Source of the DNA: an uncultured Porphyromonadaceae bacterium
GTDB taxonomy: Bacteria; Bacteroidota; Bacteroidia; Bacteroidales; Barnesiellaceae_A
DNA length: 64,000 bases
Reading direction: 5' to 3'
NCBI GenBank assembly: GCA_937891845.1
Contig: CALATP010000053.1
Span: 3,709-67,708, forward strand
Position 1 is the stretch's first letter, and each line of letters starts with the position of its first letter. The notes under the pieces were generated by a model. That model searched no databases, was not told the DNA's origin, and saw nothing but the letters and a program-made list of their open reading frames with translations. This document shows positions 1 to 41,753 of the stretch, one piece after another. The position numbers and the translations under genes were made by a program.

Positions 1-92
1 ATATTCTCTCTTTAGCAAAAGATGACGAACTCGGTATGGCGTTGCAAGATATGAATTTGCCACAGCGTGAAAGGGCGTCTAAAAAGGAGTAG
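1..92 (+). CDS. 3' end of an upstream ORF cut by the window edge; possibly the antitoxin/regulator partner of the downstream HipA kinase (identity not determinable)
   Basis: Frame 3 is open from the window edge to TAG at 90-92 (..ILSLAKDDELGMALQDMNLPQRERASKKE*). It ends 6 nt before the hipA ATG. Only 29 codons are visible. Confidence 0.3.
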   Translation, partial: ILSLAKDDELGMALQDMNLPQRERASKKE

Positions 93-98
93 TAGGCT

Positions 99-1358
99 AT
101 GAAGAAATTGTATGTATATGCCGATTTTGATTGGCTCAAGGATATTGAACTCATTGGAGAACTTGGCTACGAATCGCTTCGTGGCTCGGACAGTTATAGT
201 TTCAAGTTTGCCGATAGTTGGATTAAAAAATATAATGCCATCACCTTAAGTGAAGATCTTAACAACTATCCGGGGATACAATATACCCAACCGAATAAAG
301 ATATCTTCGGCTGCTTTGCCGATGCACTGCCAGACAGATGGGGGCGCACTCTTCTCCTCCGTCGTGAACAAATTTTGGCACAAGAGGAGAGCAGACCAGT
401 TCGCCGACTATCATCGTTTGACTTCTTGACGGGTATTGATGACTTTTCCCGTATGGGCGGATTCCGTTTCAAAGAAACGCCTGATGGTGAGTTCATAAAC
501 GCTGACAACTCTTTGCGTATTCCACCATTGACAGACTTGCGTGAACTCATTGCAGCGAGTAAAGAGATTGAGAAAAGTGAGGAGACCAATGCACTCCCCG
601 AAAAAAGATGGATTGCTCAACTTGTGCAACCGGGCTCTTCGCTCGGTGGTGCTCGCCCCAAAGCAAATGTTGTAGATACGGACCGCAGTATATATGTCGC
701 AAAGTTCCCATCATTGAAGGATGACTACGATGCAGGATTGTGGGAACATCTCTGCCATCTATTAGCCAAAAATGTGGGCATAAACGCTGCCGAAACAAAG
801 GTGATTAAAACAAACGATAAGCATCACACGCTTCTTTCTCGTCGTTTTGATAGAACGGATAGCGGCAAACGAATACATTTTGCATCTGCAATGACATTGC
901 TCGGGTTAAATGATGGCGACAACGCTACAACAGGACACGGATATATTGACATTGTTGATTTTATCATTAGCGGTTGCACCGATGTTGACGCGAACTTGCG
1001 AGAACTATTCCGCCGAGTTGCATTCAATATATGTGTCGGCAATAGCGACGACCATTTCCGCAATCATGGTTTTTTACTTACTGCAAAAGGTTGGACTCTT
1101 TCGCCTGCATACGATATGAACCCGACACTGAACGACCATCAAAGTTTGCTCATTAATAGCAAGACCAACAAAGCAGATTTGTCAATTCTGCTTGACTCGT
1201 GCGAGGAGTATATGCTCACCCCAGAGGTTGCCAAGGGCATAATCAACGAGGTTGTAACTGCTGTCAAAGATTGGCGAGTATTAGCAAATAGATTGGGTAT
1301 TGCCAAGCGAGAAATGAGTTTGTTTGAAGGTGTGTTTGATAATAGGATTAAGTTATAA
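99..1358 (+). CDS. hipA: HipA-family serine/threonine kinase toxin (type II TA), full length with N-terminal coupling domain
   Basis: 419-aa ORF. Motifs: SSLGGARPKANV (HipA P-loop-like), RRVAFNICVGNSDDHFRNHGFLL (catalytic D-x-H-x-x-N loop), SPAYDMNP. AAGGAG at 84-89 lies upstream of the ATG. Confidence 0.85.
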   Translation: MKKLYVYADFDWLKDIELIGELGYESLRGSDSYSFKFADSWIKKYNAITLSEDLNNYPGIQYTQPNKDIFGCFADALPDRWGRTLLLRREQILAQEESRPVRRLSSFDFLTGIDDFSRMGGFRFKETPDGEFINADNSLRIPPLTDLRELIAASKEIEKSEETNALPEKRWIAQLVQPGSSLGGARPKANVVDTDRSIYVAKFPSLKDDYDAGLWEHLCHLLAKNVGINAAETKVIKTNDKHHTLLSRRFDRTDSGKRIHFASAMTLLGLNDGDNATTGHGYIDIVDFIISGCTDVDANLRELFRRVAFNICVGNSDDHFRNHGFLLTAKGWTLSPAYDMNPTLNDHQSLLINSKTNKADLSILLDSCEEYMLTPEVAKGIINEVVTAVKDWRVLANRLGIAKREMSLFEGVFDNRIKL

Positions 1359-1375
1359 GATTAAGGAGGTTTATT

Positions 1376-1777
1376 ATGTACGATGACAACAATGATATAA
1401 AGAAAAGACAAGTAGAAGTTCTCAAAGAAGGTTTAGAACTACAGAATGATGTAAACGAATTTGCAAAAGAAATAAATAAGGGCATTTCTGATATAAACTA
1501 TGCTTTATTTGGTAATAATATAGTACAGATGCGTGAGTGTGCTATTTCAATTAAAAGAAAATACCCACTATTTTATTGTTATCTCCCTAAGCAAGTTCTT
1601 CCATTCATACCTTCTATTCCAATTGAAGATATGGAATATGGACAAATACGCACAGTCCTTATAGCAGAGATTAATGCACTGCGAAATATGGTAGATGATT
1701 ATGGATTATCGCAAGGTATTAAGAAGGGTTTAGAACTTGCAGTAAAATGGCGTATAGAAGATATTATGAAAAAATAA
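1376..1777 (+). CDS. hypothetical protein (133 aa, predicted helical), apparently co-transcribed with hipA
   Basis: ORF starts 17 nt after the hipA stop and is preceded by AAGGAGG at 1363-1369. No recognisable family. Confidence 0.5.
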   Translation: MYDDNNDIKKRQVEVLKEGLELQNDVNEFAKEINKGISDINYALFGNNIVQMRECAISIKRKYPLFYCYLPKQVLPFIPSIPIEDMEYGQIRTVLIAEINALRNMVDDYGLSQGIKKGLELAVKWRIEDIMKK

Positions 1778-1791
1778 GATTGCAGTTCCCA

Positions 1792-1821
1792 TTTGTATAT
1801 AACAATAATTATATACCTTTG
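1792..1821 (+). promoter_or_regulatory. candidate Bacteroides-type promoter (TTTG N18 TAccTTTG)
   Basis: TTTG at 1792-1795 and TACCTTTG at 1814-1821, in an ORF-free gap and about 170 nt upstream of a terminator hairpin. Confidence 0.3.
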
Positions 1822-1992
1822 CATCAAAGTAGGAACTCGACTCTGCGAGACACTGCAAAATGGTGCAGAATTTAGGTGGAGCAATAGCGGGAGATTACGT
1901 TTGTTGCGATTCTTTAACGCAAAGATATAGAGCCATTTAGAAATGAAACTCGTTTTCTGGTGGCACCACAGCAAAGAAAAGCAAAACAACGT

Positions 1993-2032
1993 AAAATCCT
2001 GATTTTCAACGAAAATCGGGATTTTTTATTTT
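1993..2032 (+). terminator. rho-independent terminator-like hairpin
   Basis: 14-bp stem, AAAATCCTGATTTT (1993-2006) / AAAATCGGGATTTT (2012-2025), with one G-U pair and loop CAACG, followed by TTATTTT. Confidence 0.6.
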
Positions 2033-2429
2033 CTCATCCTGACAATACATCTTACACTTCACACTCCCCCAACTACAATGATAGAGATATCTTAGATGAA
2101 ACAATACGCAAAGTTTGTAATTATTATGAATACAATGTAAGTGAACACAATTTACTAGTAAATTTGCTACTAAATATTTTTGAGTGCAAAAATTGAGCAA
2201 CTTACCACAATAGAAACAGAACTACTATAAAAAATGCAGCAATAGTTAATAAAATTTCAAAACCAAAGTTTGTTGCAGAATAAAATGTCTATGTTTATAG
2301 AATATAGACAGCTTTCGCTATGAAAATATTTAAGCGAGCTCAATCATTCTCGCTTGTTTATTACTATATTTGCCATAAAATGATTGCAAGAAAAACTCCT
2401 GTGTTTATAATGTTTCTTTATTACATAGT

Positions 2430-3542
2430 ATGGAATATAGTATAGGATTCAAAGATTTACCATTCATTCCCGAGGCGAATCAAGTTGTTTATGTCGAAAA
2501 TACATTTGACAAGAGGGTTAATGATTTTGTTATACACAATTATGACCTATTGTGTGCTGAATTCATAAAGCACAAGTTGGACTTTGTCTATCTTCCATTT
2601 TATTTCAATACACCCACACAGGAAGAGAAGGTGCGGTATTATGTTCCGTATTTAGTTTCTCAAATAAATAAACTAGGTACTATAAGCAACTCTTTTTTGC
2701 TCAACTATATGGCGCGTCCCGAGAATAGGTCCAAGATACAGCCATCTCTTCTTTCCTATTCACAAAAAGAAGATGCCGAGTGGATTTTCTCGGGGTTTAC
2801 TCTTGATGATATGATTGACGACAATGCAGATGTATCATCTATTGTCGAAAGAGTAATAGGCAAGAGGAAGGGGGTAGAAGAATATAAAATGGCTGATATT
2901 CGCTTCAGATCTGTAAGTGAAGACGACATATTAAGTGATGCGAATGAACAAGCTAATCACAAAGCTAAGATTATGATGCATAGATTAGATTTGGGATCGC
3001 TTTTTGGTAAAGAGTATACCGACGAACAGGATGCTGAAGATGATATAGACAGGATATTAATTGACCTAAAAACTACCATAGAGACCTTAAGACTGCGAGG
3101 AGTGGCATTGGGCGCAATACACGAATTTATAGACAAGCAAGAACCTATATCACCGCTTGTGATAACAGAAGACTTGCGTCTATTTCTGCCATTATACAAT
3201 AATATAGAGATAGAATTGAGTGCGCAGAAAAAGGCTTTGTTCTTCTTATTTCTGAATCATCCCGAAGGTATTGTGTTGCAGCGTTTGGATGAGTATCATA
3301 GCGAGTTGATGAATTACTACAAGCAGACTAATAAAGGTGTGCTTACCCCTAAAATGGAAAGGAGTATGAGAAGACTTGAGGAGTATGGGAATAACCAATT
3401 ATATGTAGTAATTGCTCGCATCCGAGAGGCTTTTTGTACAAAATTTGATGAGCGGTTGGCTCGCAATTATTATATTAGCGGCGAGAAGGGACTGCCCTAT
3501 AGTATACCTCTCAATCCCGACTTGATTAAATGGGAGGATTGA
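2430..3542 (+). CDS. hypothetical protein (370 aa), ORFan; acidic central region
   Basis: Long ORF with coding-like composition, own upstream TATATTTG box (2365-2372) and own terminator (3573-3606). No family recognised. Confidence 0.55.
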   Translation: MEYSIGFKDLPFIPEANQVVYVENTFDKRVNDFVIHNYDLLCAEFIKHKLDFVYLPFYFNTPTQEEKVRYYVPYLVSQINKLGTISNSFLLNYMARPENRSKIQPSLLSYSQKEDAEWIFSGFTLDDMIDDNADVSSIVERVIGKRKGVEEYKMADIRFRSVSEDDILSDANEQANHKAKIMMHRLDLGSLFGKEYTDEQDAEDDIDRILIDLKTTIETLRLRGVALGAIHEFIDKQEPISPLVITEDLRLFLPLYNNIEIELSAQKKALFFLFLNHPEGIVLQRLDEYHSELMNYYKQTNKGVLTPKMERSMRRLEEYGNNQLYVVIARIREAFCTKFDERLARNYYISGEKGLPYSIPLNPDLIKWED

Positions 3543-3572
3543 TTCCTTAATAAGAAAACGTATTAAAAACAT

Positions 3573-3606
3573 AAAGCAAGCTTTGCAAGGCTTGCTTTTT
3601 TGTTTT
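3573..3606 (+). terminator. rho-independent terminator
   Basis: AAAGCAAGC (3573-3581) / GCTTGCTTT (3590-3598), 9-bp stem, followed by a T-run. Confidence 0.65.
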
Positions 3607-3623
3607 CCTCGTCATTATCGGTA

Positions 3624-3674
3624 TATATCAATACATTTGCAATACAACTCTTAGTTGTTAAATGTATTGATATA
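3624..3674. promoter_or_regulatory. 51-nt composite palindrome (15-bp perfect arms plus inner 6-bp stem) overlapping a -7-like box; candidate operator
   Basis: TATATCAATACATTT (3624-3638) is the exact reverse complement of AAATGTATTGATATA (3660-3674). Inner stem is ACAACT (3644-3649) / AGTTGT (3653-3658). TACATTTG at 3632-3639 lies inside the left arm. The next ATG is at 3701. Confidence 0.6.
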
Positions 3675-3700
3675 AAAATAAATAGAAAAGAATACTAACT

Positions 3701-5062
3701 ATGAATATTATTTACTCAAAAAAGGATTCTGTCGACAAAGAGCAGGCCAATTGGATACGACAAATGGAGTATATACATAGTCTATGTGTTGATTTTCGAT
3801 TGTCTTGCTATAACTATAATGGCAAATGGGGTGTATGGCAAACCTTAAGAGATGAAAGAATACTTGTAGATCCATTGAGTTTGGTAAATTCATTGTTTGT
3901 TGATGATACCTACAGCATCTTTATATCGGATGAAGCACAGAAACGCAGCTCGTGTTGGGTGGATATACGCAAGGATTTTTTCTGTATGACTTGGAACACA
4001 AACCACCCTGACTCTCCGATAAAAAAGCAGTTAATGTTCCGATTTGATGAGTATATAGCCCAAATAGCAACATCAGTTGGGCAACTCTATGATGTGATGA
4101 AAGCTGGAGAGACCGTATGTTATAATAGGTATGACCTAAATCTTGAAGCACTTGAGACAGCTGTAGCTCAATTGAGAATAAAGTCGGTACAACCCAATGT
4201 GTATCGTTTAAGAGCCTGCGACGTGGTGGAAGAGCGGTTCGATTTTACTCCATTATGTAGTGATGAATACCGCATAGGCATAGGAGATAGGCACTTTACA
4301 ACATTTATGGTTGGCGACCTAGAGTTGATACGCTATCAACTTGAAAGTATTTTTTATGGCGAAAATGCCACAATTAAAGTTGCCTATGAATATGATGAGA
4401 CAGTAATGAAGATTGAACATAGAAGTATATTGGATGAGATAATTCGTACAAATGAGGGCTATCGGTATACATACAAAGATTATGCAAAGGTAACGATACA
4501 ACCCAATTCCTTTGTACAAACACCAATAATAGCAGGCTATTGCAACTATACAGATACTATCCGTACATTCTATGAGGGATTGTTGCGTATGGCATTACTT
4601 CACGACAAAAAGGAGTATGATTATATTCCCGGGTGCATAGAGGCGTATAATATGTGTAAATCGCCTTTGATAGAAACTTTCTTGAACAACAATAAACGAG
4701 ATAGTTGTAAATCGAGCATAAGGCAGGTGCGAATAAAGGAAATTGTAACCATAAGCCCCGATTATGATTATTTTCTAATAAATCAGGAAAATTATACCAT
4801 CGACCTTGGAGATTTGCCTGATGAACAAGGCAACCCAATAGTAATGCCAGAGTTGGAAACGTGGCAAAGCGAGATAAAGCATCTTATTGTCGAGGCCGCA
4901 GTGGGTAGAGATGTATTTTTCGATTGGGCTGACTGGCACAGGCGTGGCATAGAACTTGCCAAACGGTTACGTAAGCAATTGACTACATACTATGATTTGT
5001 GGTACAGTGCACCAAGCGAAGATAAAAGCGGTATAATAAAAGACAAGATTCTAATTATATAA
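3701..5062 (+). CDS. hypothetical protein (453 aa); long member of an island-specific paralog family with a conserved C-terminal module
   Basis: Residues ~190-440 align by eye with the 355-aa protein at 7744-8811 (GDRHF..ELIRYQLESI / FYEGLLRMAL / YNMCKSPLIETFL / IDLGDL..PELETW..DWADWHRRGIELAKRLRKQL..YDLWY). Confidence 0.7.
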   Translation: MNIIYSKKDSVDKEQANWIRQMEYIHSLCVDFRLSCYNYNGKWGVWQTLRDERILVDPLSLVNSLFVDDTYSIFISDEAQKRSSCWVDIRKDFFCMTWNTNHPDSPIKKQLMFRFDEYIAQIATSVGQLYDVMKAGETVCYNRYDLNLEALETAVAQLRIKSVQPNVYRLRACDVVEERFDFTPLCSDEYRIGIGDRHFTTFMVGDLELIRYQLESIFYGENATIKVAYEYDETVMKIEHRSILDEIIRTNEGYRYTYKDYAKVTIQPNSFVQTPIIAGYCNYTDTIRTFYEGLLRMALLHDKKEYDYIPGCIEAYNMCKSPLIETFLNNNKRDSCKSSIRQVRIKEIVTISPDYDYFLINQENYTIDLGDLPDEQGNPIVMPELETWQSEIKHLIVEAAVGRDVFFDWADWHRRGIELAKRLRKQLTTYYDLWYSAPSEDKSGIIKDKILII

Positions 5063-5070
5063 AGAAGGAA

Positions 5071-5535
5071 GTGACTATAAAAGAGAGGATTATTAAATTT
5101 ATCAAAAGAAAGGATATTACGCAGAAGTTTTTTTGTGACAAGTTGGGTGTGTTGCATAATTACATTACAACCATTAACAAGTCTATACCATCTGATAGAT
5201 TGGTCCAGATAATAGAGCTATACCCAGACCTCAATATAGATTGGTTGCTAACCGGTCAAGGAGAGATGCTGCGAGAGGTGAAGCAAAATGATAATGCACA
5301 ACCTGCTTTGTCGGTGGATGTGTTGGCTTATTTGCGCGAGAAAGATAGCGAACTCCGCGCAAAAGATGATGAGATAAGAGAGCTTCGTGCGCGTATAGAT
5401 GAACTTACACGCGAACTTCACGAACGCGAACTAGAGATTGTAGAACTTAAAAAAAGAGAACCACCTTGTGGCGAAGCGTGCCGATGTTGTGGCATCATCG
5501 CAAAAGGTTGGTTGAGAGTGAGGATAAAGGAATAA
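5071..5535 (+). CDS. helix-turn-helix protein of the phage CI-repressor-like type with a coiled-coil and a Cys-rich C-terminal tail
   Basis: N-terminus ..ITQKFFCDKLGVLHNYITTINK..IDWLLTGQGEML is typical of Bacteroidales CI-type HTH proteins. This is followed by a heptad-like ELRAKDDEIRELRARIDELTRELHERELEIVELKK and CGEACRCCG. GTG start at 5071, 8 nt after the preceding stop. Confidence 0.7.
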   Translation: MTIKERIIKFIKRKDITQKFFCDKLGVLHNYITTINKSIPSDRLVQIIELYPDLNIDWLLTGQGEMLREVKQNDNAQPALSVDVLAYLREKDSELRAKDDEIRELRARIDELTRELHERELEIVELKKREPPCGEACRCCGIIAKGWLRVRIKE

Positions 5536-5559
5536 ACAACCAATAAAAATAAAAAGGAT

Positions 5560-6096
5560 ATGAAAAAAGAATTAAAAGATTTAACAATAGCAGTTGGAGG
5601 CTTTATTTTAATTGAAGGATTGGGAATATTGGCAATTATGTTGTTGGATGGATTAGATGGCAAAATATATAGTGCGACAATTAAAGCAATTACAACGACA
5701 ATGGCTGCGTGTTTATGTGGATTGTGCTACTATGTTTACTCTGTGATTAAGTCTTTATTTAACCTCAAAATTAAAAAACACAGTTGTAAGCATCTCGAAA
5801 CAATATTACACAGCGGTTGTAAAACATTAGGGAAAGAGGAGGTGCAACAATTGTATGATATTGCATTTGGTGATAATGATGTTGCAATAGAATGGATGAA
5901 TGAAAACCAAGAAATAAGAAATAAGCTCAACAAGAAAATTCTATATTATGATTTGTCGCAAAGTGAAAAAGCGGAGTTAAAAGAAAAATATGATGTAATA
6001 AATAAAAGGTCGGATATTGTGTTTTATTTAAGGTTTTACAAAAGACAAAGTTATGAAGTTGATGAGATATACAATAAAATATTAAATCAATATTAA
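5560..6096 (+). CDS. hypothetical membrane protein (178 aa, two N-terminal TM helices, helical soluble C-terminus)
   Basis: Hydrophobic stretches IAVGGFILIEGLGILAIMLL and AITTTMAACLCGLCYYVYSVI. Tightly packed in the operon. Confidence 0.5.
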   Translation: MKKELKDLTIAVGGFILIEGLGILAIMLLDGLDGKIYSATIKAITTTMAACLCGLCYYVYSVIKSLFNLKIKKHSCKHLETILHSGCKTLGKEEVQQLYDIAFGDNDVAIEWMNENQEIRNKLNKKILYYDLSQSEKAELKEKYDVINKRSDIVFYLRFYKRQSYEVDEIYNKILNQY

Positions 6097-6098
6097 TT

Positions 6099-6344
6099 AT
6101 GAAAAAGATTATTATTACAATGTTAATGCTTATAGCCGGGATGTCCGGTATAGTAAGCGTCGATGCACAAGATTATGATGCATCGGCCAGTAAAGTGTGG
6201 ATATGTGTAAGTCCTAATGCCAAGCGTTACCATAGAGATTACGACTGCAAGGGATTGCAAAGCTGCAAGCACGACATTATAGAAGTGTCGGTAGCCGAAG
6301 CACAAGATAGAGGATTGACAAAGTGTAAAATGTGCTACGACTAA
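6099..6344 (+). CDS. small secreted Cys/His-rich protein (81 aa)
   Basis: Signal-peptide-like N-terminus MKKIIITMLMLIAGMSGIVSVDAQ. Mature part has a C..YH..YDC..L..C......A...G...C..C pattern resembling Ada-type/zinc-ribbon-like YHxxxC...CxxC motifs. Starts 2 nt after the upstream stop. Confidence 0.55.
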   Translation: MKKIIITMLMLIAGMSGIVSVDAQDYDASASKVWICVSPNAKRYHRDYDCKGLQSCKHDIIEVSVAEAQDRGLTKCKMCYD

Positions 6345-6368
6345 TGTGCTACCTTTTGTGCTACCTTT
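6345..6368. repeat. perfect 12-nt tandem duplication TGTGCTACCTTT x2
   Basis: Copies at 6345-6356 and 6357-6368, directly after the stop codon. A third TGTGCTAC lies at 6331-6338 inside the CDS end. Confidence 0.8.
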
Positions 6369-6511
6369 AGCTAATTATCGTTGTAAGTAATTGATAATAA
6401 ATATATTCTGATACTCCCCATAGGTGTACGAAGATTTAAGATAATTAGTAATTGTAACACGCTATAAATAAGATAGTTAAGCACATCTTGTTATAGTTTA
6501 AATTGGAGTTG

Positions 6512-6563
6512 TGACACACAAAAGGTAACACAGAATAACCCCAAATAACATCTTTGTGTGTCA
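6512..6563. repeat. 11-bp perfect inverted repeat with 30-nt spacer between the two island operons
   Basis: TGACACACAAA (6512-6522) / TTTGTGTGTCA (6553-6563), followed by TTTTG. Confidence 0.6.
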
Positions 6564-6657
6564 TTTTGTGATACCCCTAAAATTACTAATTATATATGAA
6601 GTTATACTAGACAAAGCATAGACTAATTGTAAATATACCATTAAAAAGGAGGATACT

Positions 6658-7014
6658 ATGGAAATCGAAAAAAGATGGATGAAAAAATGGATTGAGTGGT
6701 TGCTTAATATAAGCATTTTTTTGACTGCGTTTGATTTTATCAAGTTGCTTGTGGCAATTCAATATTTGACTGTTGTAGAACTTGTATTCAGCACTCTAAC
6801 TGGTGTGATGAGTATTGCCGGTTGCATTATGATACTCTACACACAAAAAAAGAGGTATGGAATAATATTATTCTTTACTAGTATTTTGCTATCATTGGTC
6901 ATCCTCTACAATGAGTGGTATCTAGTAGTAGGAAAACTTGCTTTATGGGGTATATTGCTTGGTGTAGTAAAATATAAAGGCAAGAGTGTTATTGAGGTTT
7001 GTTTTTCTGAATAG
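6658..7014 (+). CDS. hypothetical small membrane protein (118 aa, 3-4 TM)
   Basis: Strong AAGGAGG at 6646-6652. Hydrophobic segments (LLNISIFLTAFDFIKLLVAI, LTGVMSIAGCIMILY, GIILFFTSILLSLVILY, LALWGILLGVV). Confidence 0.5.
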   Translation: MEIEKRWMKKWIEWLLNISIFLTAFDFIKLLVAIQYLTVVELVFSTLTGVMSIAGCIMILYTQKKRYGIILFFTSILLSLVILYNEWYLVVGKLALWGILLGVVKYKGKSVIEVCFSE

Positions 7015-7028
7015 AATTTTATTGAGCT

Positions 7029-7658
7029 ATGAAAATTGATGATAATTCGAACTATATAAAATATGAAATCAAAAAAGGCAAAGAGTGTGCCTATATGTCT
7101 CACTATGGCGAGGTATGGGAAGATGGGTTTGCAGTAGAAAATTATGATATTTCTAATAATAATATATACTATGAAGATGCTGTTTGGAATGGACATTCTG
7201 CACACATCGATAATTGTTGGAAACGAATCCTTGCAAGGGACTTTAATCGTTGGAGAGATGAGATAAATAAAACAAAGCAGAACCTTATTGATAAGGGCAC
7301 AAGAGCAGGTACAGAAATTGTCAAGGAGTTGAAGGAGGGCGATTATGTCTTCATTGCTGTGCATCCTTATGATTTGGAAGATGAATTTGAAAGAATAGAG
7401 TATTGCTTTCTTGAGGTTGATTCTGTTGACAACAATTTTGTATGTGGCAAACAGATGTATATAAGCACTTATTTTTTTGCTTACAGTTATAATAAAATGG
7501 AGCTAAAGGGTGAGGATTATTGGTTAGATTGTGCATTGGAAGAAAATAATGTGATACGCATAGATAAAAGTGAGTTTTATCTCGCAGTTGAGGATTTTCA
7601 CCGGCTTACTACAAAGCTTATGTCCGAAATAAAGAAGATGTATCACGGTATATTGTAA
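7029..7658 (+). CDS. hypothetical protein (209 aa), ORFan
   Basis: ORF begins 14 nt after the preceding stop. No family recognised. Confidence 0.5.
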   Translation: MKIDDNSNYIKYEIKKGKECAYMSHYGEVWEDGFAVENYDISNNNIYYEDAVWNGHSAHIDNCWKRILARDFNRWRDEINKTKQNLIDKGTRAGTEIVKELKEGDYVFIAVHPYDLEDEFERIEYCFLEVDSVDNNFVCGKQMYISTYFFAYSYNKMELKGEDYWLDCALEENNVIRIDKSEFYLAVEDFHRLTTKLMSEIKKMYHGIL

Positions 7659-7746
7659 AAGTAATAGTCCTATTATTAATGTGCTATATCAAACGCTGTG
7701 TCACAAGAGAAGTATATTATATGTTGAATTATAAAAGAAAATAGTG

Positions 7747-8811
7747 ATGGCTTTTCACGAAAATTTTCAAGAGGAATTTAATGTTTACTACACACCCAAA
7801 TGGTTTAAGTTGCGAAGCGAACTCTATGCCGAGGCGTGTGAGTGGAAGCCCCGCAATCCGGATGAAATCTTCTTCCACTTTAAAAATCTCGATGCGGGTT
7901 GGATGGATTTTGACGTTTATGTTAATGGAGAAAAGAGGCACGAGTGTTATTTTAGTGCTGTTTTTAATCCTTTTCATAATCTGAAGGTGTGGATGGAAGA
8001 TATTGTTAATGATTTTAAGATGAGCAGTACACTGCCTATAAATATAGAGGGGCGCACGTTGATATTTCATTATGAGAATATAAAATTGTGCGAAATCTCT
8101 GATAGACGTCGGTGGATTAGCAATGAGAGGGATAAGGACGAATGGGAGTTAACCGATGCCTATACACATCCTACCATAGGATTGTTTTATATCTATGATT
8201 CGGCTTGCAAAACCTTACCGGTTGTGTGTATGTGCCAAGCAAAACAACTGTTATCGTGCCTATATAATGCACTTTTGCGTTATGCTATAGGCCCACATAG
8301 TGAGAAAATAGCTCAAGAGTGGTACGACGATGACTATGATAATTGGTACTTTTATAATACCATCAAATCACCGTTGATTGAGTGGTTTATATACTCAAAA
8401 TGGGGATATAGGCATCAAGTTCCTCAATTCACAGCTACATCGGTAATAAAGGAGGCTATACATATGTGGGCCGAATGGGGTGATGGCCTTTTCTGGAGCA
8501 ATGGACTTTGCTGTGGTAATGCCGAGGGGTTTGTGGTAAAAACGGATAATAAGCGAATAGATCTTACTGATATTCCGGAGCTACGAGTATGGTATGACGA
8601 GTTTGACAATAGTTATTGTGAGGAGAAATGGTCGGATGACAAGTATCAAGAATGGCTTAAAAGAGGATGGGAACTAGCTCAACTTGTAAGAAAGAAGCTA
8701 CCTGATAGTATCGATCTCTTCTACCAGTGGAAAGAATACTCACTACAGTGTAACATTCAAGGTGATAGCGATATACCATTTATAGTCCCTAATGAGAATA
8801 ATAATTTATAG
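7747..8811 (+). CDS. hypothetical protein (354/355 aa); short member of the island paralog family
   Basis: The ORF track starts at GTG 7744; the first ATG is at 7747. It aligns with the 453-aa protein over most of its length and carries the C-terminal module IDLTDIPELRVWYDEF..YQEWLKRGWELAQLVRKKLPDSIDLFY. Confidence 0.7.
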   Translation: MAFHENFQEEFNVYYTPKWFKLRSELYAEACEWKPRNPDEIFFHFKNLDAGWMDFDVYVNGEKRHECYFSAVFNPFHNLKVWMEDIVNDFKMSSTLPINIEGRTLIFHYENIKLCEISDRRRWISNERDKDEWELTDAYTHPTIGLFYIYDSACKTLPVVCMCQAKQLLSCLYNALLRYAIGPHSEKIAQEWYDDDYDNWYFYNTIKSPLIEWFIYSKWGYRHQVPQFTATSVIKEAIHMWAEWGDGLFWSNGLCCGNAEGFVVKTDNKRIDLTDIPELRVWYDEFDNSYCEEKWSDDKYQEWLKRGWELAQLVRKKLPDSIDLFYQWKEYSLQCNIQGDSDIPFIVPNENNNL

Positions 8812-8823
8812 TACCGCAATATT

Positions 8824-10419
8824 ATGAAGAACAAAAAACATCCCAATATTCAAGATTTATATAGCATTGAAGATATAAATAAAGCAAAGGCTTGCTATAA
8901 ACTCACCGGATATTATCCAATTTCGTTGATGCCCGGTGATCAAGAGGAGGTACTAGGCAACACTAGGTCTTTGGGTGTCTACAATCTTTCTAATACCTCA
9001 CAAAGGACTTACACTCTGAAGTATTGGTATGCAGTGCAGGTATGGAATACTGCAATAGCAATAATAAGTAATAGTATCGTTGGGAATGAACTGATATATA
9101 TTCTACCCCATTGGGAGGATAGGGATGACTCTTTCCGAAAACTTGTTAATAATGATAAGTTTACTCCCGATATGGTTGGGAAACTATGGAAGTTATTAGA
9201 AGATCTTGCAAACTCCGGCAATATAAAGGTACACGAGGGGTTCTTTATTGAGAATGCTACAAAAGGTTATTGGGGCGCTCCTTCAAAATGTCACATAGAG
9301 ATGAACTGCCGATTCTACATCAACATAATTCTTGATACAGAAAGCTTCCACAATCACACATTCCCAATTGAAAATATTTGGGAGTACAAGTTTAACAAAA
9401 AGAACAAAAGCTACAAATGGGATGAGATAAAACACCTCTTTTGTGAAGTGTCACTATCCGTTCGCGAGTTGCTCAATCACAAATGGATGAATAGAATAAA
9501 TAAGTATGACAAAGAACTTATAGAGGCTTGTTCTAATTTTGATATTGAAGGAGTAAAAAGAGCTGTTGAGAGAGGAGCTAACGTCAACACCCTTAGCAAT
9601 ATGGACGAAACACCATTAACCCAAGCTATTGGTATGTACAATGATTGCTTTGCATATAAAGATTATACAGAGACTGAACGAGAAGTGATTGAAAACGAAA
9701 ATTATCACAAACTATTACCCATAATAGATTATCTACTCAAGCAAGGTGCCGATATAAATCTTTTTGGATATGATGGAGATTCACCTCTTGTTGCTGCCTA
9801 TTACACACGTTCTACTCGTTTGGTAGAATATCTATTAAAGAAAGGAGCCAATCCCAATGTAAATTGTCATTTGACAGACTCTGCCAACGAAAGTATATTT
9901 TGTAGTTCTATATTGAGTATTATTTATTATTTATATAGCGATGATGATGGAATTGGTGAAGATATAAAGCGTGTCGTGAAACAATATGGTGGCAGGCTAT
10001 ACTATTTCGGCTACAATCCTATCAAGAAGGAGTATTCCGGCAGAGCTTTTGTCGTGTTTCATCCTACAGAAAACGCCTTGTTTCTGGATTGCGCCTATGA
10101 TAATTGTGGTGACAGCAAAACACTACACATAGAGGTAAGCGAAAATGAGTTTGTAGATATAGATATATCTACAGTAACAGGGCTTGAAGAATGGCATCAA
10201 GAGTTTATAAATCTTTTTTATAATAATTCCGATAGGAGTGACGAAAAGTGGCGCGATTGGTTCGACCTAGGACTTAAATTAGCTCGGAAAGTAAAGTTGC
10301 TCTTGCCCGACAATGTAGATTTATACTATCTGCGTGATAGCAATCCACTTTTCATAATTCGCAATGATGGCAGTAAACAGTGGAACTATTACAATGGGAA
10401 ACATATTTGGGTAGAATAA
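8824..10419 (+). CDS. ankyrin-repeat protein (531 aa) ending in the same C-terminal module as the two paralogs
   Basis: ANK-like repeats at ~aa 228-347 (..GVKRAVERGANVNTLSNMDETPLTQAI.. / ..IIDYLLKQGADINLFGYDGDSPLVAAY.. / ..LVEYLLKKGANPNV). C-terminus DIDISTVTGLEEWHQEF..KWRDWFDLGLKLARKVKLLLPDNVDLYY. Confidence 0.75.
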   Translation: MKNKKHPNIQDLYSIEDINKAKACYKLTGYYPISLMPGDQEEVLGNTRSLGVYNLSNTSQRTYTLKYWYAVQVWNTAIAIISNSIVGNELIYILPHWEDRDDSFRKLVNNDKFTPDMVGKLWKLLEDLANSGNIKVHEGFFIENATKGYWGAPSKCHIEMNCRFYINIILDTESFHNHTFPIENIWEYKFNKKNKSYKWDEIKHLFCEVSLSVRELLNHKWMNRINKYDKELIEACSNFDIEGVKRAVERGANVNTLSNMDETPLTQAIGMYNDCFAYKDYTETEREVIENENYHKLLPIIDYLLKQGADINLFGYDGDSPLVAAYYTRSTRLVEYLLKKGANPNVNCHLTDSANESIFCSSILSIIYYLYSDDDGIGEDIKRVVKQYGGRLYYFGYNPIKKEYSGRAFVVFHPTENALFLDCAYDNCGDSKTLHIEVSENEFVDIDISTVTGLEEWHQEFINLFYNNSDRSDEKWRDWFDLGLKLARKVKLLLPDNVDLYYLRDSNPLFIIRNDGSKQWNYYNGKHIWVE

Positions 10420-10706
10420 TAATAACCGCCAATAACGATAATCGGCAATCTTGTAACAATAAAACATATTGCGTATTTTTTCATAATATAATTGTGCTAT
10501 TCAAAGATATATAACAATAAATTACTCGGCAAATAGAGAACTTAAAAATGGATAAACTCGAACTCGTCTCGTTTTCACAGCGACATTATTATTGACAACT
10601 AGAATTAGAAATAGCTTGCGATAGAAGGTCTGGATGGCTGTAAAAGATATTCACAATCAAATATGCAAAGAGGTAAATCTATAAAGAACTCGTTAAAATT
10701 ATTAAT

Positions 10707-11096
10707 ATGAAGACAAATGCATTGAGACTTTTAGAGGACGTCAAGAGCCAACTTAATCAAATTAAAATACCCAATGCCGAAAAATATGAGGCTAATATAA
10801 TAGCTTTTCTCAATCAGTGCCCCCACGATCTAATATTACAAGATGCGCAAGTTAAATGGGATGAGAAAGAAGAATTTGACTTTCGTTGGGATACAGCGCA
10901 CCTTGATTGCAGATTTTCAATCGGTCTGGAGGAAACCACTTGGCACATATGGGTTGGCATTAACACCCATAACCAAAATGATGAATGCTACCAACATGGA
11001 ATTGGAGGCATAGAAATAGACGGTAATGAGGATTGCTTCGCTAAAATCTTTTATGAAACAATGGAATGGGAAATTTTAATATGCCAAAGAATGTAA
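10707..11096 (+). CDS. hypothetical protein (129 aa), ORFan, last gene before the tRNA
   Basis: ORF only; no family recognised. Confidence 0.45.
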   Translation: MKTNALRLLEDVKSQLNQIKIPNAEKYEANIIAFLNQCPHDLILQDAQVKWDEKEEFDFRWDTAHLDCRFSIGLEETTWHIWVGINTHNQNDECYQHGIGGIEIDGNEDCFAKIFYETMEWEILICQRM

Positions 11097-11160
11097 TTAT
11101 CCATCAATTATTACCAATAGCCAATCCCAATAAACACCAATAAGTAGGCAAAAATATAAA

Positions 11161-11202
11161 AGAAAAATCGCTAAGTGTTGTTTTTCAACTGCTTAGCGAT
11201 TT
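11161..11202 (-). terminator. rho-independent terminator downstream of the tRNA gene (minus strand)
   Basis: Stem ATCGCTAAG (11167-11175) / CTTAGCGAT (11192-11200). On the minus strand it is followed by TTTTTC. Confidence 0.65.
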
Positions 11203-11208
11203 GTTATG

Positions 11209-11282
11209 TGGTCCCACTTGGGCTTGAACCAAGGACCCCCTGATTATGAGTCAGATGCTCTAACCAACTGAGCTATAGGACC
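11209..11282 (-). tRNA. tRNA with CAT anticodon (elongator Met or lysidine-modified Ile2; acceptor C4-G69/C5-G68 leans towards Ile2)
   Basis: Reverse complement is GGTCCTA TA GCTC AGTTGGTTA GAGC A TCTGA CTCATAA TCAGG GGGTC CTTGG TTCAAGC CCAAG TGGGACC A. This gives a full cloverleaf with a 7-bp acceptor, GTTCAAGCC T-loop and anticodon CAT. No encoded CCA. Confidence 0.9.
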
Positions 11283-11312
11283 GATATTCAGATTGATTAC
11301 TGAATGTGGGTG

Positions 11313-11344
11313 CAAAGGTAATATTCTTTGATTATATGTGCAAG
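11313..11344 (-). promoter_or_regulatory. candidate promoter of the tRNA gene
   Basis: Minus-strand TACCTTTG (11313-11320) with CTTG about 20 nt upstream (11341-11344), and T/A tracts further upstream. Confidence 0.4.
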
Positions 11345-11609
11345 TTTTTTTGGTTTTTTATTTTCGATTTTAAGTTTTTCTTATTTCTATTTATATTTCT
11401 AATGTTTACTTTCGTTGGCCGTTTTTGCATTCAACGACACCACATTCAACTTATATACAACATATTACAAGTGTTATAAAAGATATCCGCTTGTATTTCG
11501 TTGCAGATATAGATTCTTTTTGATTAAAAAAATATCTTTCACGGGGAACTTTTATAGCTTGTTATTTGTTATTATTGTTAGAATTTATCACTATTAATTT
11601 TATTACGCT

Positions 11610-11867
11610 ATGAAAAATGAGATTAAAGCATACATTATGAAAAGTGAGAGGTGTTACGATATAGAGGATATAAATGAGCTTATCTCTAACTTGCCTCATC
11701 ACAAAGCTAAGATTTTGGGGATGTATCTTGCGGGTTATACTTACGACGAGATTGCGTCTATGTATATGGGTACTCCGGAATATATAAAAGATACGGTGAA
11801 TGATTGTATTACCGACCTAGAAAATCAAAGTCTTATAAGCAAACTTATGAGGATCTATTTACAATAG
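11610..11867 (+). CDS. small protein (85 aa) with possible sigma-70 region 4/LuxR-like HTH
   Basis: ..KAKILGMYLAGYTYDEIASMYMGTPEYIKDTVNDCITDL.. resembles a region-4-type HTH. AT-rich context. Confidence 0.4.
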   Translation: MKNEIKAYIMKSERCYDIEDINELISNLPHHKAKILGMYLAGYTYDEIASMYMGTPEYIKDTVNDCITDLENQSLISKLMRIYLQ

Positions 11868-12022
11868 CACGTTATAGGCTGTTGATATGGGGCTGTGCTC
11901 AACTGCTTGCGGGTAGCTACTCTCGCGATATGGGGGCTATATTGTAAGCGAAATTAGACGGCTTATTTCTTGGTGCGTAGTACTATAATTATTAATTTTG
12001 CGCACCTCAAAAAGCTACACAA

Positions 12023-13249
12023 ATGAGCAGATGCCTAACATATATGATGAGTAACGGACTGCAATTGGTGCATTACCCGCAGGCGGGTCGTGTGTCATAT
12101 TGTGGTTTTATTGTCAATGCAGGTTCTCGCGATGAGAGACCCGACGAGTATGGATTGGCACACCTTGTAGAGCACACTATCTTCAAGGGGACAGCTCGCC
12201 GACGTGCCTGCCACATACGCAACAGGATGGAGGCTGTCGGGGGAGAACTTAATGCCTTCACGTCGAAAGAGGAGACTGTTATATATAGTATTTTCCCATC
12301 GGGGTATTATGAGCGTGCAATGGAACTGATGGGCGATTTGGTAGCCAATGCCAACTTTCCCGACACCGAGTTTGAGAAAGAACGTGAAGTGGTTGTCGAA
12401 GAGATTGATATGTATCGCGACACGCCCTCTGAGCTGATTTATGATGAGTTTGAAAATCGTCTTTTCGCCAACCATTCGTTAGGTCATAACATACTTGGAA
12501 CTCCTTCCGACTTGGCACAAATCTCGTCCGACAAAGCGCGACAATTTTTATCCCGCCATTATATACCTTCTCAAATGGTATTTTTCTCGCTTGGAGATAT
12601 TCCTTTCGAGCGCATCATACGATATGCCGAGAAGTATTTTACCACAATAACAGCCCGTCCCGATATGCGCAAACGCGTTGCGCCCGAGGTAGTAATGCCT
12701 TTTGAAGAGCGTATTTCGTGCGACACACATCAGGCTCACGTTGTACGCGGGTGTCGCACTTATAGTCTTTACGACGAACGTCGGTTGCCTATGTTGCTAT
12801 TAAATAATATTTTGGGCGGACCTTGTCTCAACAGTCTGCTCAATGTATCGTTACGAGAACAATGCGGGTATGTATACACTGTAGAGTCGGCAGTTACCAA
12901 TTATACCGATACCGGAATATTTTCGATATATTTTGGCACAGACGTACGTTACGTCGACAAGTGTCTACGACGCATACGCAATATTCTCGATCGCATAAAG
13001 GGCTCATATTTAACCCCATCACGAATAGCAGCGGCCAAGAAACAATATTTGGGACAGCTTATGGTGGCCGAGGATAATAATGAAGGATTGGCTCTTGCCA
13101 TTGGCAAAGGTTATTTGCGACACGGCACTATATTGTCGCCCGAAGAACAGATAAGTCGCATCGAGGCCATTCGTCTCGACACAATGCAAGAGGTAGCCAA
13201 TGAGATGCTAGATGCCGATAAGTGGTCTATGCTTGTTTTTCAACCTTAA
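12023..13249 (+). CDS. M16-family (pitrilysin/insulinase-like) zinc peptidase
   Basis: HLVEHTIFKGT (HxxEH zinc motif), 408 aa, typical M16 architecture. Confidence 0.85.
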   Translation: MSRCLTYMMSNGLQLVHYPQAGRVSYCGFIVNAGSRDERPDEYGLAHLVEHTIFKGTARRRACHIRNRMEAVGGELNAFTSKEETVIYSIFPSGYYERAMELMGDLVANANFPDTEFEKEREVVVEEIDMYRDTPSELIYDEFENRLFANHSLGHNILGTPSDLAQISSDKARQFLSRHYIPSQMVFFSLGDIPFERIIRYAEKYFTTITARPDMRKRVAPEVVMPFEERISCDTHQAHVVRGCRTYSLYDERRLPMLLLNNILGGPCLNSLLNVSLREQCGYVYTVESAVTNYTDTGIFSIYFGTDVRYVDKCLRRIRNILDRIKGSYLTPSRIAAAKKQYLGQLMVAEDNNEGLALAIGKGYLRHGTILSPEEQISRIEAIRLDTMQEVANEMLDADKWSMLVFQP

Positions 13250-40844: not shown

Positions 40845-41753
40845 TCACCCTTGCATATTACGAGGATGATGATTTATTATCTCTCGTCGCAAAAAGTGAT
40901 TATCAAGGTGAACATAAACCTCGGTAGTGGTTATGCTTTCGTGTCCCAACATCTGCTGTATGGCTCGCAAGTTGGCTCCATTTTCGAGCAGATGCGTGGC
41001 AAAAGAGTGTCGCAATGTATGCGGGCTCACTCGCTTACGTATTCCACATAAGTTACAAGCGTCACGCACTATATAGAATACCATTACACGCGACAGATGC
41101 TTACCACGACGATTGAGAAAAACATAATCTTCTTCTCCCGGCTTGATATCGAGCATACTTCGCTGTGGTAAGTAACGTGTTATTTCATCAATGGCTTGCT
41201 GTGAGATAGGAACCAACCTTTGTTTCTCGCCCTTACCCACTACACGTATATATTCGTCCGAGAGATACAGTTGTGACAATCTCAATTCTACCAACTCCGA
41301 CACTCGCAGACCACAACTATACAACACCTCGATAATAGCCCTATTTCGTTGCCCCTCGGGCAGTGAAACATCAATATTGTCGATCATTCGATTTACCTCC
41401 GAGACGGTCAAAACCTCAGGCAAATGTCGCCCCAAACGTGGCATCTCCAAAAGTAAGGCCGGATCTTCTTGAATAACATCTTCAAGTAGCAAAAAATGGA
41501 AGAATGATTTCACTCCCGAAATGACCCGCGCTTGCGATCGTGCTGCGATACCTACATCTTGCAATGTGCATACAAACTCGTGCAACTTGTCGGCAGTGAC
41601 ATCTTGCCAAGAGATATCTTCTACATCAAGAAAATCGTACAACTTCGACACATCATCCCAATATGCCTCAATAGTATTGACAGTAAGACCTTTTTCAAGG
41701 CGCAGATACGCCATATACCGTTGTAATAGTCTATCTGATTTATCAGCATTCAT
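40845..41753 (-). CDS. xerD: site-specific tyrosine recombinase XerD
   Basis: GLRVSEL (R), HTLRHSFATHLL (HxxR), LGHESITTTEVYVH (H..Y). Start chosen at MNADKSDRLLQRYMAYL (CAT at 41751-41753). The longer ORF to 41954 overlaps the divergent aroQ start. Confidence 0.85.
   Translation of the reverse strand: MNADKSDRLLQRYMAYLRLEKGLTVNTIEAYWDDVSKLYDFLDVEDISWQDVTADKLHEFVCTLQDVGIAARSQARVISGVKSFFHFLLLEDVIQEDPALLLEMPRLGRHLPEVLTVSEVNRMIDNIDVSLPEGQRNRAIIEVLYSCGLRVSELVELRLSQLYLSDEYIRVVGKGEKQRLVPISQQAIDEITRYLPQRSMLDIKPGEEDYVFLNRRGKHLSRVMVFYIVRDACNLCGIRKRVSPHTLRHSFATHLLENGANLRAIQQMLGHESITTTEVYVHLDNHFLRREIINHHPRNMQG

Follow-up and report, generated by a model that had tools for sequence, protein, structure and literature searches.

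A mosaic AT-rich accessory block beside a tRNA(CAT) gene in an uncultured Porphyromonadaceae bacterium contains a tRNA-Phe scar

Is an AT-rich block of genes that lies on one strand and faces the 3' end of a tRNA gene an element integrated into that tRNA? The question is raised by a locus of an uncultured Porphyromonadaceae bacterium, for which a reading of the letters and their open reading frames (ORFs), here called the sequence-only reading, had proposed an accessory island of about 11 kb targeted to the adjoining tRNA(CAT) gene. The window, by which we mean the whole stretch of DNA that was analyzed, comprises 64 kb (C53:3709-67708) of contig C53 (CALATP010000053.1) in the genome of this bacterium, G000; positions given without a contig name are those of the window. 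G000 is a metagenome-assembled genome (MAG) of 2.39 Mb in 67 contigs with a GC content of 0.427, estimated to be 94.6% complete with 2.7% contamination. For comparison we used a same-genus set of 13 species (G004, G005, G006, G009, and G013 are labels of related genomes), together with other metagenomic contigs and loci, which carry numbers beginning with L, and the proteins of the block were searched with the Pfam, NCBIfam, PADLOC, and PHROGs profile libraries.

At least two modules, acquired separately and differing in history, make up the block, a mosaic whose parts meet at 1969-2083: module 1, which spans C53:1 to window position 1968, and module 2, at window 2083-11138. The explanation that we prefer, with a probability of roughly three in four, is a hypervariable accessory region between tRNA-Phe(GAA) and tRNA(CAT) in which the two modules have separate histories and tRNA(CAT) is an empty prophage site.

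Composition of the block and the adjoining tRNA(CAT) gene

The 12 plus-strand ORFs described between 99 and 11096 are borne out by the ORF listing, and so is the low GC content: 1-kb windows across 1001-12000 have a GC of 0.33-0.39 versus 0.37-0.51 (mostly 0.40-0.49) elsewhere in the window, and the mean is ~0.35 over 1-11.1 kb versus 0.44 in the remaining window. The exceptions are the genes for HipB (GC 0.46) and HipA (GC 0.44), which are not AT-rich. The low-GC plus-strand block extends upstream to the contig start, for a total of at least 15.6 kb, and low GC persists beyond tRNA(CAT) as far as 11969. Within the whole genome, C53:1-15600 has the largest tetranucleotide distance of 228 equal-size windows (0.29 vs. 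a median of 0.098), and its 5-kb windows are all among the 19 lowest in GC of 865. In the comparison with relatives that the sequence-only reading had suggested, none of the 13 same-genus species has any island gene adjoining the gene for the M16 peptidase on the far side of tRNA(CAT). Atypical composition and absence from close relatives make this a genomic island in the generic sense; the proposal of an accessory island thus holds with respect to horizontal acquisition, a clear compositional break, and absence beside M16 in 13 relatives, and fails with respect to a single 11-kb unit.

The boundary toward M16 consists of the following features:

11139-11207, minus strand: native 3' flank and terminator hairpin of tRNA(CAT), conserved in same-genus species without the island
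11208-11282, minus strand: tRNA(CAT), single-copy and non-initiator, whose 3'-terminal 43 nucleotides (nt; 11208-11250) are the prophage att core
11283-11330, minus strand: conserved tRNA(CAT) promoter region (from alignment), with a TACCTTTG-type -7 box on the tRNA strand
11331-11969, plus strand: species-specific low-GC spacer (GC 0.32) containing an ORF of 85 amino acids (aa) at 11610-11867 with a weak match to a sigma factor or helix-turn-helix (HTH) protein

The geometry at this boundary had been described accurately: the tRNA is on the minus strand, its 3' end faces the block, and 111 nt (about 110 had been estimated) separate it from the last ORF. The inference drawn from that geometry, that the abutting tRNA(CAT) was the target, is contradicted by the retained native flank, the position of a prophage, and a tRNA-Phe scar within the block. 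The complete tRNA(CAT) gene keeps the ~55-70-nt native 3' flank and hairpin seen in six related species that lack the island; no element DNA has replaced this flank, and the island therefore lies beyond the att position. A replaced flank can be seen in G004, where a full tRNA with a foreign flank is accompanied by a 43-nt partial copy that keeps the native flank (G004:C46:498-540). Four metagenomic loci (L118, L119, L120, and L124) are 99% identical to 2365-11250, a span comprising module 2, the native flank, and precisely the 43 3'-terminal nt of the tRNA, and then run into a prophage; L127 (ERZ28594435) also has a prophage between the tRNA and module 2. The prophage extends over more than 18 kb and encodes a repressor, HTH_17, a 1065-aa primase, ArdA, AbiEii/DUF6088, a head-maturation protease, and a large terminase. 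The prophage recurs with its junction, at which GATTATGAG meets GCTAT, among unrelated neighbors in L125 and L126, and G004 also has this junction. The 43-nt tRNA(CAT) repeat is seen in L118-L120, L124, L125-L127, and G004. No part of the prophage was found in the G000 assembly. Since the prophage inserts between tRNA(CAT) and the block, the block is not an element targeting tRNA(CAT): in G000, this tRNA is an empty attB, with the block on the chromosomal side of the att site.

The genome has three different single-copy tRNA(CAT) genes, and because the one considered here is single-copy and has no initiator features, it is a housekeeping gene and not island cargo. Its -7 box (TACCTTTG) was assigned on the basis of the Bacteroidetes promoter consensus. 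An identical tRNA(CAT) occurs elsewhere in seven relatives, and a copy with 96% identity in two more; the conserved unit around it measures only ~190-250 nt (hairpin, tRNA, and promoter; ~11139-11330), and both of its flanks differ in each species. From 11970 onward, shortly ahead of the M16 peptidase gene, the sequence is again homologous to the M16 loci of the relatives. The order M16 peptidase, Dus, next gene is retained in each of the 13 same-genus species, none of which has tRNA(CAT) beside M16; the order tRNA, spacer, M16 was found in three other samples at 99.4-99.7% identity, and an exact-protein look-up of M16 in other samples gave no match. Upstream of M16, 9 of the 13 relatives have a cardiolipin-synthase-like (cls) gene, which in G000 is located on contig C1, followed by core genes. 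A reconstruction of the left end from synteny (cls-M16 in 9/13 relatives, cls-TypA here) was attempted and failed, the neighbors of TypA differing in nearly every species.

A tRNA-Phe scar at the end of a mobile module

The left part of the window holds the end of module 1, the tRNA-Phe sequences, and the left edge of module 2:

1-92, plus strand: 3' end of a HipB-like XRE-HTH gene that starts at C53:3480 (PF13560 HTH_31, E = 1.4e-8; gene order as in L090 and L091)
99-1358, plus strand: predicted HipA-family kinase toxin, 419 aa (PF07804, E = 4e-48; PF13657)
1376-1777, plus strand: 133-aa ORF with no known domain (no Pfam, PHROG, or PADLOC match)
1778-1948, plus strand: non-coding right arm, the end of module 1, 97.6% identical to L090/L091 up to the tRNA-Phe core
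1949-1968, plus strand: attR-type scar, the last ~20 nt of tRNA-Phe(GAA), with 3 mismatches in 20 and an exact 12-nt core, CTGGTGGCACCA, at 1957-1968
1969-2082, plus strand: native downstream flank of tRNA-Phe, with a terminator hairpin at 1993-2025 (terminator scan), ending at the probable breakpoint 2082/2083
2083-2196, plus strand: remnant of a 625-aa gene, its 3'-terminal 37 codons; L083, L129, and L130 are homologous from 2083 onward

The scar was recognized through a 30-nt hairpin to the right of module 1 that is present in 31 gut-metagenome contigs, whose only similarity to C53 is window 1950-2033; most of them have a full tRNA-Phe. As the tRNA-Phe(GAA) gene ends inside this shared segment in 21 of the 31, window 1949-1968 is the last ~20 nt of tRNA-Phe, and window 1957-2033, comprising the tRNA-Phe core and the first 65 nt of the flank, is 100% identical to L136. 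A module 1-type element end at tRNA-Phe is also found in the same-genus genomes G013 and G005, both of which contain the terminal sequence of the right arm (1778-1948), and partial tRNA-Phe scars occur in four same-genus genomes besides G000 (G005, G006, G009, and G013). Module 1 thus ends in a partial tRNA 3' end that is followed by the native flank of that tRNA, and its window part (1-1968) is the only portion of the block bounded by an att-type tRNA repeat. No second tRNA-Phe scar was found in 2083-11138 or elsewhere in the assembly. Contig C67 breaks off within tRNA-Phe, after the promoter and the initial 44 nt, and is likely the other side of the assembly gap next to C53. A weak Rfam match in this area to the Bacteroides sRNA BTnc005 was rejected: it scores 29 bits against a gathering score of 175 and stems mainly from the terminator hairpin.

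The earlier report of no integrase and no tRNA 3'-end repeat in the window stands for an integrase near the block and for a tRNA(CAT) repeat, and has to be amended for the tRNA-Phe(GAA) repeat at 1949-1968. Profile searches of the block proteins revealed no integrase or recombinase in C53:1-15600, and none was found on the island side of the strain variants L083, L129, and L118. An integrase and the far end of the island had been expected upstream of position 1; the 3.7 kb of contig upstream of the window has no integrase, and a search for a direct repeat of the tRNA(CAT) 3' end found no copy in the whole 2.39-Mb assembly. Within window 1-12100 no att-like repeats were detected; the distal end lies beyond the contig, so absence there is unproven.

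On its own contig, module 1 encodes a truncated SMC/AAA ATPase, a TIR-like protein (381 aa, weak PF10137 match), a RES-domain protein of 305 aa, HipB, HipA, and the 133-aa ORF; in other copies, an HTH gene, a PLD-SNF2 helicase, and a type IIG methylase-restriction enzyme lie upstream of the RES/ATPase set. The DNA of C53:1-3179 is 99.8% identical to L092 and that of C53:1-5683 ~95% identical to L090 and L091, and the flanking genes and flank GC of these loci all differ, placing the module in three host contexts at 95-99.8% identity. Because near-identical copies occur in three contexts and 300 further species of the order, judged from their representatives, lack the RES protein, module 1 is a strain-level mobile module. 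In the collection, 556 blocks list the identical RES protein, with constant gene order and contigs of up to 457 kb; module 1 moves between gut Bacteroidales, nearly unchanged among gut bacteria.

The HipA_C match (PF07804) covers positions 1-211 of 213, and the HTH gene ends 6 nt before hipA, as predicted for a HipBA pair of a kinase toxin and an adjoining upstream antitoxin gene. The hipA of the window is a diverged allele, with 83-91% DNA identity to the L090/L091 copies in the hipBA stretch, and an exact-protein look-up of HipA in other samples gave no match; the C-terminal 160 residues, the part present in G013, share 95% aa identity with the window HipA. The 133-aa protein follows HipA in L090, L091, and G013 with 97.7% aa identity. 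An integrase adjoins module 1 in L091 only, and no tRNA was found at that locus. In L091 (ERZ19692829, 775-8558), the left part of module 1 is replaced by a higher-GC set of integrase, HTH_17, AAA_25, and DUF6371 primase genes, which suggests that a second element entered module 1 by insertion or recombination.

Module 2 begins with the remnant of the 625-aa gene. All 37 of its residues (37/37 aa) are identical to the end of the 625-aa protein, whose gene is intact in L083, L129, and L130. The last 17 nt of the tRNA-Phe flank resemble the native flank of the relatives, which there continues TGTGCAAGCGAG. As the remnant is identical and the flank of the relatives continues differently, position 2082/2083 is most readily read as a deletion or recombination breakpoint joining the tRNA-Phe locus to module 2. 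A 78-aa ORF listed at 1960-2196 was rejected as a gene, its 3' part being this remnant. The intact 625-aa gene is preceded on the same strand by a 71-aa ORF, a Pif1-type helicase, a caspase-like peptidase, and small ORFs (L129 and L130); no integrase lies upstream of it, including 6 kb further left in L129. None of these genes was found in the G000 assembly, which also has no alternative continuation of the tRNA-Phe flank.

Module 2 is 98.4-99.4% identical in L083, L084, L118-L124, L129, and L130, with at least eight other samples having it at 98.7-99.4% identity, and its upstream partner varies between strains. One variant, L122 (SRR32918219), has a deletion of ~520 nt (6440-6960) that includes the start of the 118-aa hydrophobic ORF listed below. 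The 453-aa gene of the module is absent from the whole genomes of the 13 same-genus species. Module 2 is best explained as a resident accessory block of the species, truncated later at its left edge.

Each of the two flanking tRNAs is a genuine integration hotspot. In G013 and G005, methylase- and helicase-type defense ORFs lie beyond the tRNA-Phe flank, on its downstream side. In G005 (L179; G005:C35:109488-115134), two copies of the tRNA-Phe flank hairpin lie 5.5 kb apart around a 546-aa methylase-like and an 889-aa helicase-like ORF, an arrangement that looks like tandem accretion at tRNA-Phe. In G013 (L178; G013:C3, 1585-5179 in flank orientation), two ORFs with Dcm-methyltransferase-like N-termini and a 508-aa ORF directly follow the flank, which is different defense-type cargo at the same hotspot. 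Elsewhere in G000 there are six integrase-type genes, none of them close to the island. The strongest Phage_integrase match of the genome (160 bits) is a 372-aa ORF at window ~40902-41414 (C53:44610-45122, minus strand), 30 kb from the island. Contig C50 (1633 nt), which breaks off at the start of another tRNA, has a 401-aa ORF for a tyrosine integrase (PF00589, 114 bits); it is likely a further tRNA-associated element, unrelated to this locus. Five other stretches with a GC of 0.31-0.36 (C3:42.5-50 kb, C26:22.5-40 kb, C6:1-7.5 kb, C20:32.5 kb, and C10:37.5-45 kb) are likely further accessory islands.

The cargo of module 2

To the right of the remnant, module 2 contains:

2430-3542, plus strand: 370-aa ORF with no known domain and a strong terminator-like hairpin at 3573-3598; 98.7-99% identical in L083 and L118-L120
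3701-5062, plus strand: 453-aa paralog with the shared C-terminal module (BLASTP vs. the 355-aa ORF, E = 5e-8)
5071-5535, plus strand: CI/XRE-type HTH protein with a coiled coil, 154 aa (PF07022, E = 9e-4; phrog_8, E = 7.6e-10)
5560-7658, plus strand: four small ORFs of 178, 81, 118, and 209 aa (ORF translations)
7744-8811, plus strand: 355-aa family member with ~50 metagenomic homologs that lack Pfam domains
8824-10419, plus strand: 531-aa protein with an N-terminal domain, ankyrin repeats (PF12796, E = 2.7e-9), and the shared C-terminal module (paralogy E = 3e-8)
10707-11096, plus strand: 129-aa ORF that closes the module, without a known domain; 15 contigs contain the exact protein, in each case at the end of module 2

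The sequence-only reading had recognized only HipA and the CI-type HTH protein among the products of the block; Pfam agrees on both (PF07804, E = 4e-48; PF07022, weak at E = 9e-4) and adds the ankyrin repeats of the 531-aa ORF. Read by eye from their translations, the 81-aa ORF has a hydrophobic N-terminus and several cysteines, and the 118-aa ORF is largely hydrophobic. At window 3624-3674, shortly before the 453-aa gene, lies a perfect 15-nt inverted repeat, TATATCAATACATTT / AAATGTATTGATATA, with its arms 21 nt apart, which may serve the HTH protein of the module as an operator.

The 453-, 355-, and 531-aa ORFs are paralogous through a common C-terminal module of ~70 aa. A profile of this module retrieves 216 representative clusters, with proteins of 59-635 aa, in which it is fused to ankyrin repeats (12 of 109 representatives), DUF6578 (2), an RNA-repair-type HAD domain (1), or, in the rest, domains of no known family. 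In other Bacteroidales, recurrent partners of the family are an 87-aa gene, a CpXC protein, and a ~520-aa ankyrin protein; accessory genes around it include HTH_17, RlaP, CYTH, NT5C, and Thg1, and no tRNA lies within 10 kb. In L097 (ERZ27298210), a distant family member is clustered with CYTH, NT5C, RlaP, AAA_33 kinase, and Thg1-like genes, and this RNA-repair-like neighborhood may hint at the role of the family.

From its context, our guess is that module 2 most likely has a conflict-related role, in defense or immunity; part of that context are the methylase and helicase ORFs that occupy the corresponding place beyond tRNA-Phe in G013 and G005. That module 2 constitutes an undescribed conflict system (anti-phage, anti-toxin, or damage repair), built on a family with no relative in PDB or BFVD and a mobile C-terminal module and situated between two tRNA att sites, is a tentative suggestion that we consider rather less than evenly balanced. 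The structure model of the 355-aa protein is confident (pLDDT 90, pTM 0.89). Two results speak against a conflict role: a fold search with this model found no match in PDB or BFVD, and in Pfam, NCBIfam, PADLOC, and PHROGs the proteins of module 2 gave no defense or immunity domain, the only matches being HTH and ankyrin.

Alternative explanations and comparison with known systems

In the reading that we prefer, tRNA-Phe(GAA), which would lie just off the contig start, and tRNA(CAT) are convergent and flank the accessory region. Module 1 would be cargo from the attR side of an integrative element that inserted into tRNA-Phe at its 3' end, with a gene order reconstructed by homology as HTH, PLD-SNF2 helicase, type IIG methylase-restriction, SMC/AAA ATPase, TIR-like, RES, and HipB-HipA-133 aa, and its cargo is predicted to comprise phage-defense and toxin-antitoxin genes. 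Module 2 would be a resident accessory block with an HTH regulator, small ORFs, and three paralogs sharing the C-terminal module, and a deletion or recombination would have joined the native tRNA-Phe flank to the 3' end of its 625-aa gene. The analysis shows where the boundaries lie, the two att scars, a mosaic structure, and the distribution; the insertion of module 1 by an integrase and the order of events are what we infer from them, and the functions are predicted from the genes. Several results weigh against this scheme. The junction of the two modules was found in no other sample, by exact scan or by look-up of the junction ORF, and rests on one metagenome-assembled contig; contig C53 begins inside the ATPase gene; the PLD-SNF2 helicase, the methylase, and the ATPase N-terminus are on no contig of G000 or of related assemblies; neither a complete tRNA-Phe nor an integrase was recovered beside module 1 in the G000 assembly; and synteny is so heavily scrambled in the genus that the order of events is not reconstructible.

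A single island of ~11 kb or longer that had integrated site-specifically at the tRNA(CAT) 3' end, its integrase and distal att lying upstream of position 1, would account for a tRNA 3' end that faces an AT-rich one-strand block, and this tRNA is a proven att site for another element. The tRNA is complete and still has its native 3' flank, though, the assembly has no repeat of it, and the prophage that does use this att inserts between tRNA and block; moreover, the block is a mosaic with an internal tRNA-Phe scar, the 3.7 kb upstream hold no integrase, and copies of the modules elsewhere have no tRNA within 10 kb, so that we regard this explanation as highly improbable. A wrong join in the assembly, by which module 1 of another organism or locus became attached to module 2, is somewhat less improbable and still very unlikely: module 1 is 99.8% identical to copies in other taxa, the contig starts within it, the junction and the HipA allele of the window occur in no other sample, and the MAG has some estimated contamination (2.7%), but the join is not at a shared repeat, since scar and module 2 are separated by 114 nt of genus-typical tRNA-Phe flank, the last 17 nt of which match the native flank of relatives. 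In addition, the same-genus genomes G013 and G005 carry the same element at tRNA-Phe, C67 provides the matching 5' part of tRNA-Phe, and the flank has no other continuation in the assembly.

Two further explanations concern module 2 alone. It might be, in place of a resident block, what is left of one or more older tRNA-Phe-integrated elements pushed outward by tandem accretion. The tandem tRNA-Phe flank copies around the methylase/helicase pair of G005 show such an arrangement, tRNA-Phe scars are common in the genus, and module 2 is low in GC and within the genus restricted to this species; yet there is no second scar in 2083-11138 or the rest of the assembly, and none of the variants examined, among them L129 with another 6 kb to the left, has a recombinase within or close to module 2, which makes this origin unlikely, if the least unlikely of the four. 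Slightly less plausible is a rAID-like array of orphan immunity genes against interbacterial toxins. The genes are co-directional with a GC of at most 0.41, ankyrin and small variable domain-less proteins are typical of polyimmunity loci (10.1101/471110), and the family recurs with the same partners in other Bacteroidales. Against this, all variants lack an XerD-like recombinase 5' of the array, there is no common intergenic motif, nothing except ankyrin and HTH matches Pfam, and the genes are larger than most immunity genes. We therefore retain the two-module region between tRNA-Phe and tRNA(CAT), which amounts to an ordinary tRNA-flanked accessory and defense hotspot: familiar island biology with some uncharacterized cargo.

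The locus illustrates that an AT-rich block facing a tRNA 3' end is insufficient for calling a tRNA-targeted island: here, the att site at the adjoining tRNA is empty, and the block itself conceals the real att scar, which derives from another tRNA. It provides a natural series in a lineage of gut Bacteroidales, with the empty site, the prophage-occupied site, and alternative upstream modules; it contains a HipBA/RES/TIR-like/restriction-modification (RM) module whose near-identical copies place it in circulation among gut bacteria; and it places an uncharacterized family, with a confident model and no matching fold, in a neighborhood of conflict genes.

The rAID-1 loci of the Bacteroidales are defined by a 5' XerD-like recombinase, at least two co-directional downstream genes with a GC of at most 41%, and repetitive integron-like intergenic sequences (10.1101/471110). 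Module 2 is similarly a low-GC, co-directional, poorly annotated array in a Bacteroidales genome, and its genes (GC 0.29-0.41) fall within the stated range. A domain search found no recombinase upstream of module 2 in G000, L083, or L129 (identity to the rAID-1 reference protein was not computed), and six shared 12-mers were observed in the six intergenic regions of module 2 against a shuffle mean of 2.05 and maximum of 9, which is no excess. Membership in rAID-1 was rejected on the lack of a 5' XerD-like recombinase, of intergenic repeats, and of homology to known immunity families.

With integrative elements in tRNA 3' ends, which have attL/attR repeats, the locus shares the tRNA-Phe repeat and native flank at the end of module 1, found in two related species as well, and the prophage arrangement at tRNA(CAT) in other strains and G004; it differs in that the block, taken whole, does not form such an element, with module 2 outside both att sites, and in that no integrase or complete attL was recovered for module 1. 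Defense islands and hotspots are comparable in having side by side a type IIG RM-like enzyme and a PLD-SNF2 helicase (by homology), an ATPase, TIR-like and RES proteins, and HipBA, and relatives hold other methylase/helicase ORFs downstream of tRNA-Phe; module 2, half of the region, differs in having no recognizable defense gene, and defense is here predicted from genes. HipBA type II toxin-antitoxin systems, finally, are matched by the XRE-HTH gene immediately upstream of a full-length HipA_C kinase, whereas the cassette described here has a conserved third gene, of 133 aa, after HipA in every copy seen, and sits as a diverged allele inside a larger mobile module.

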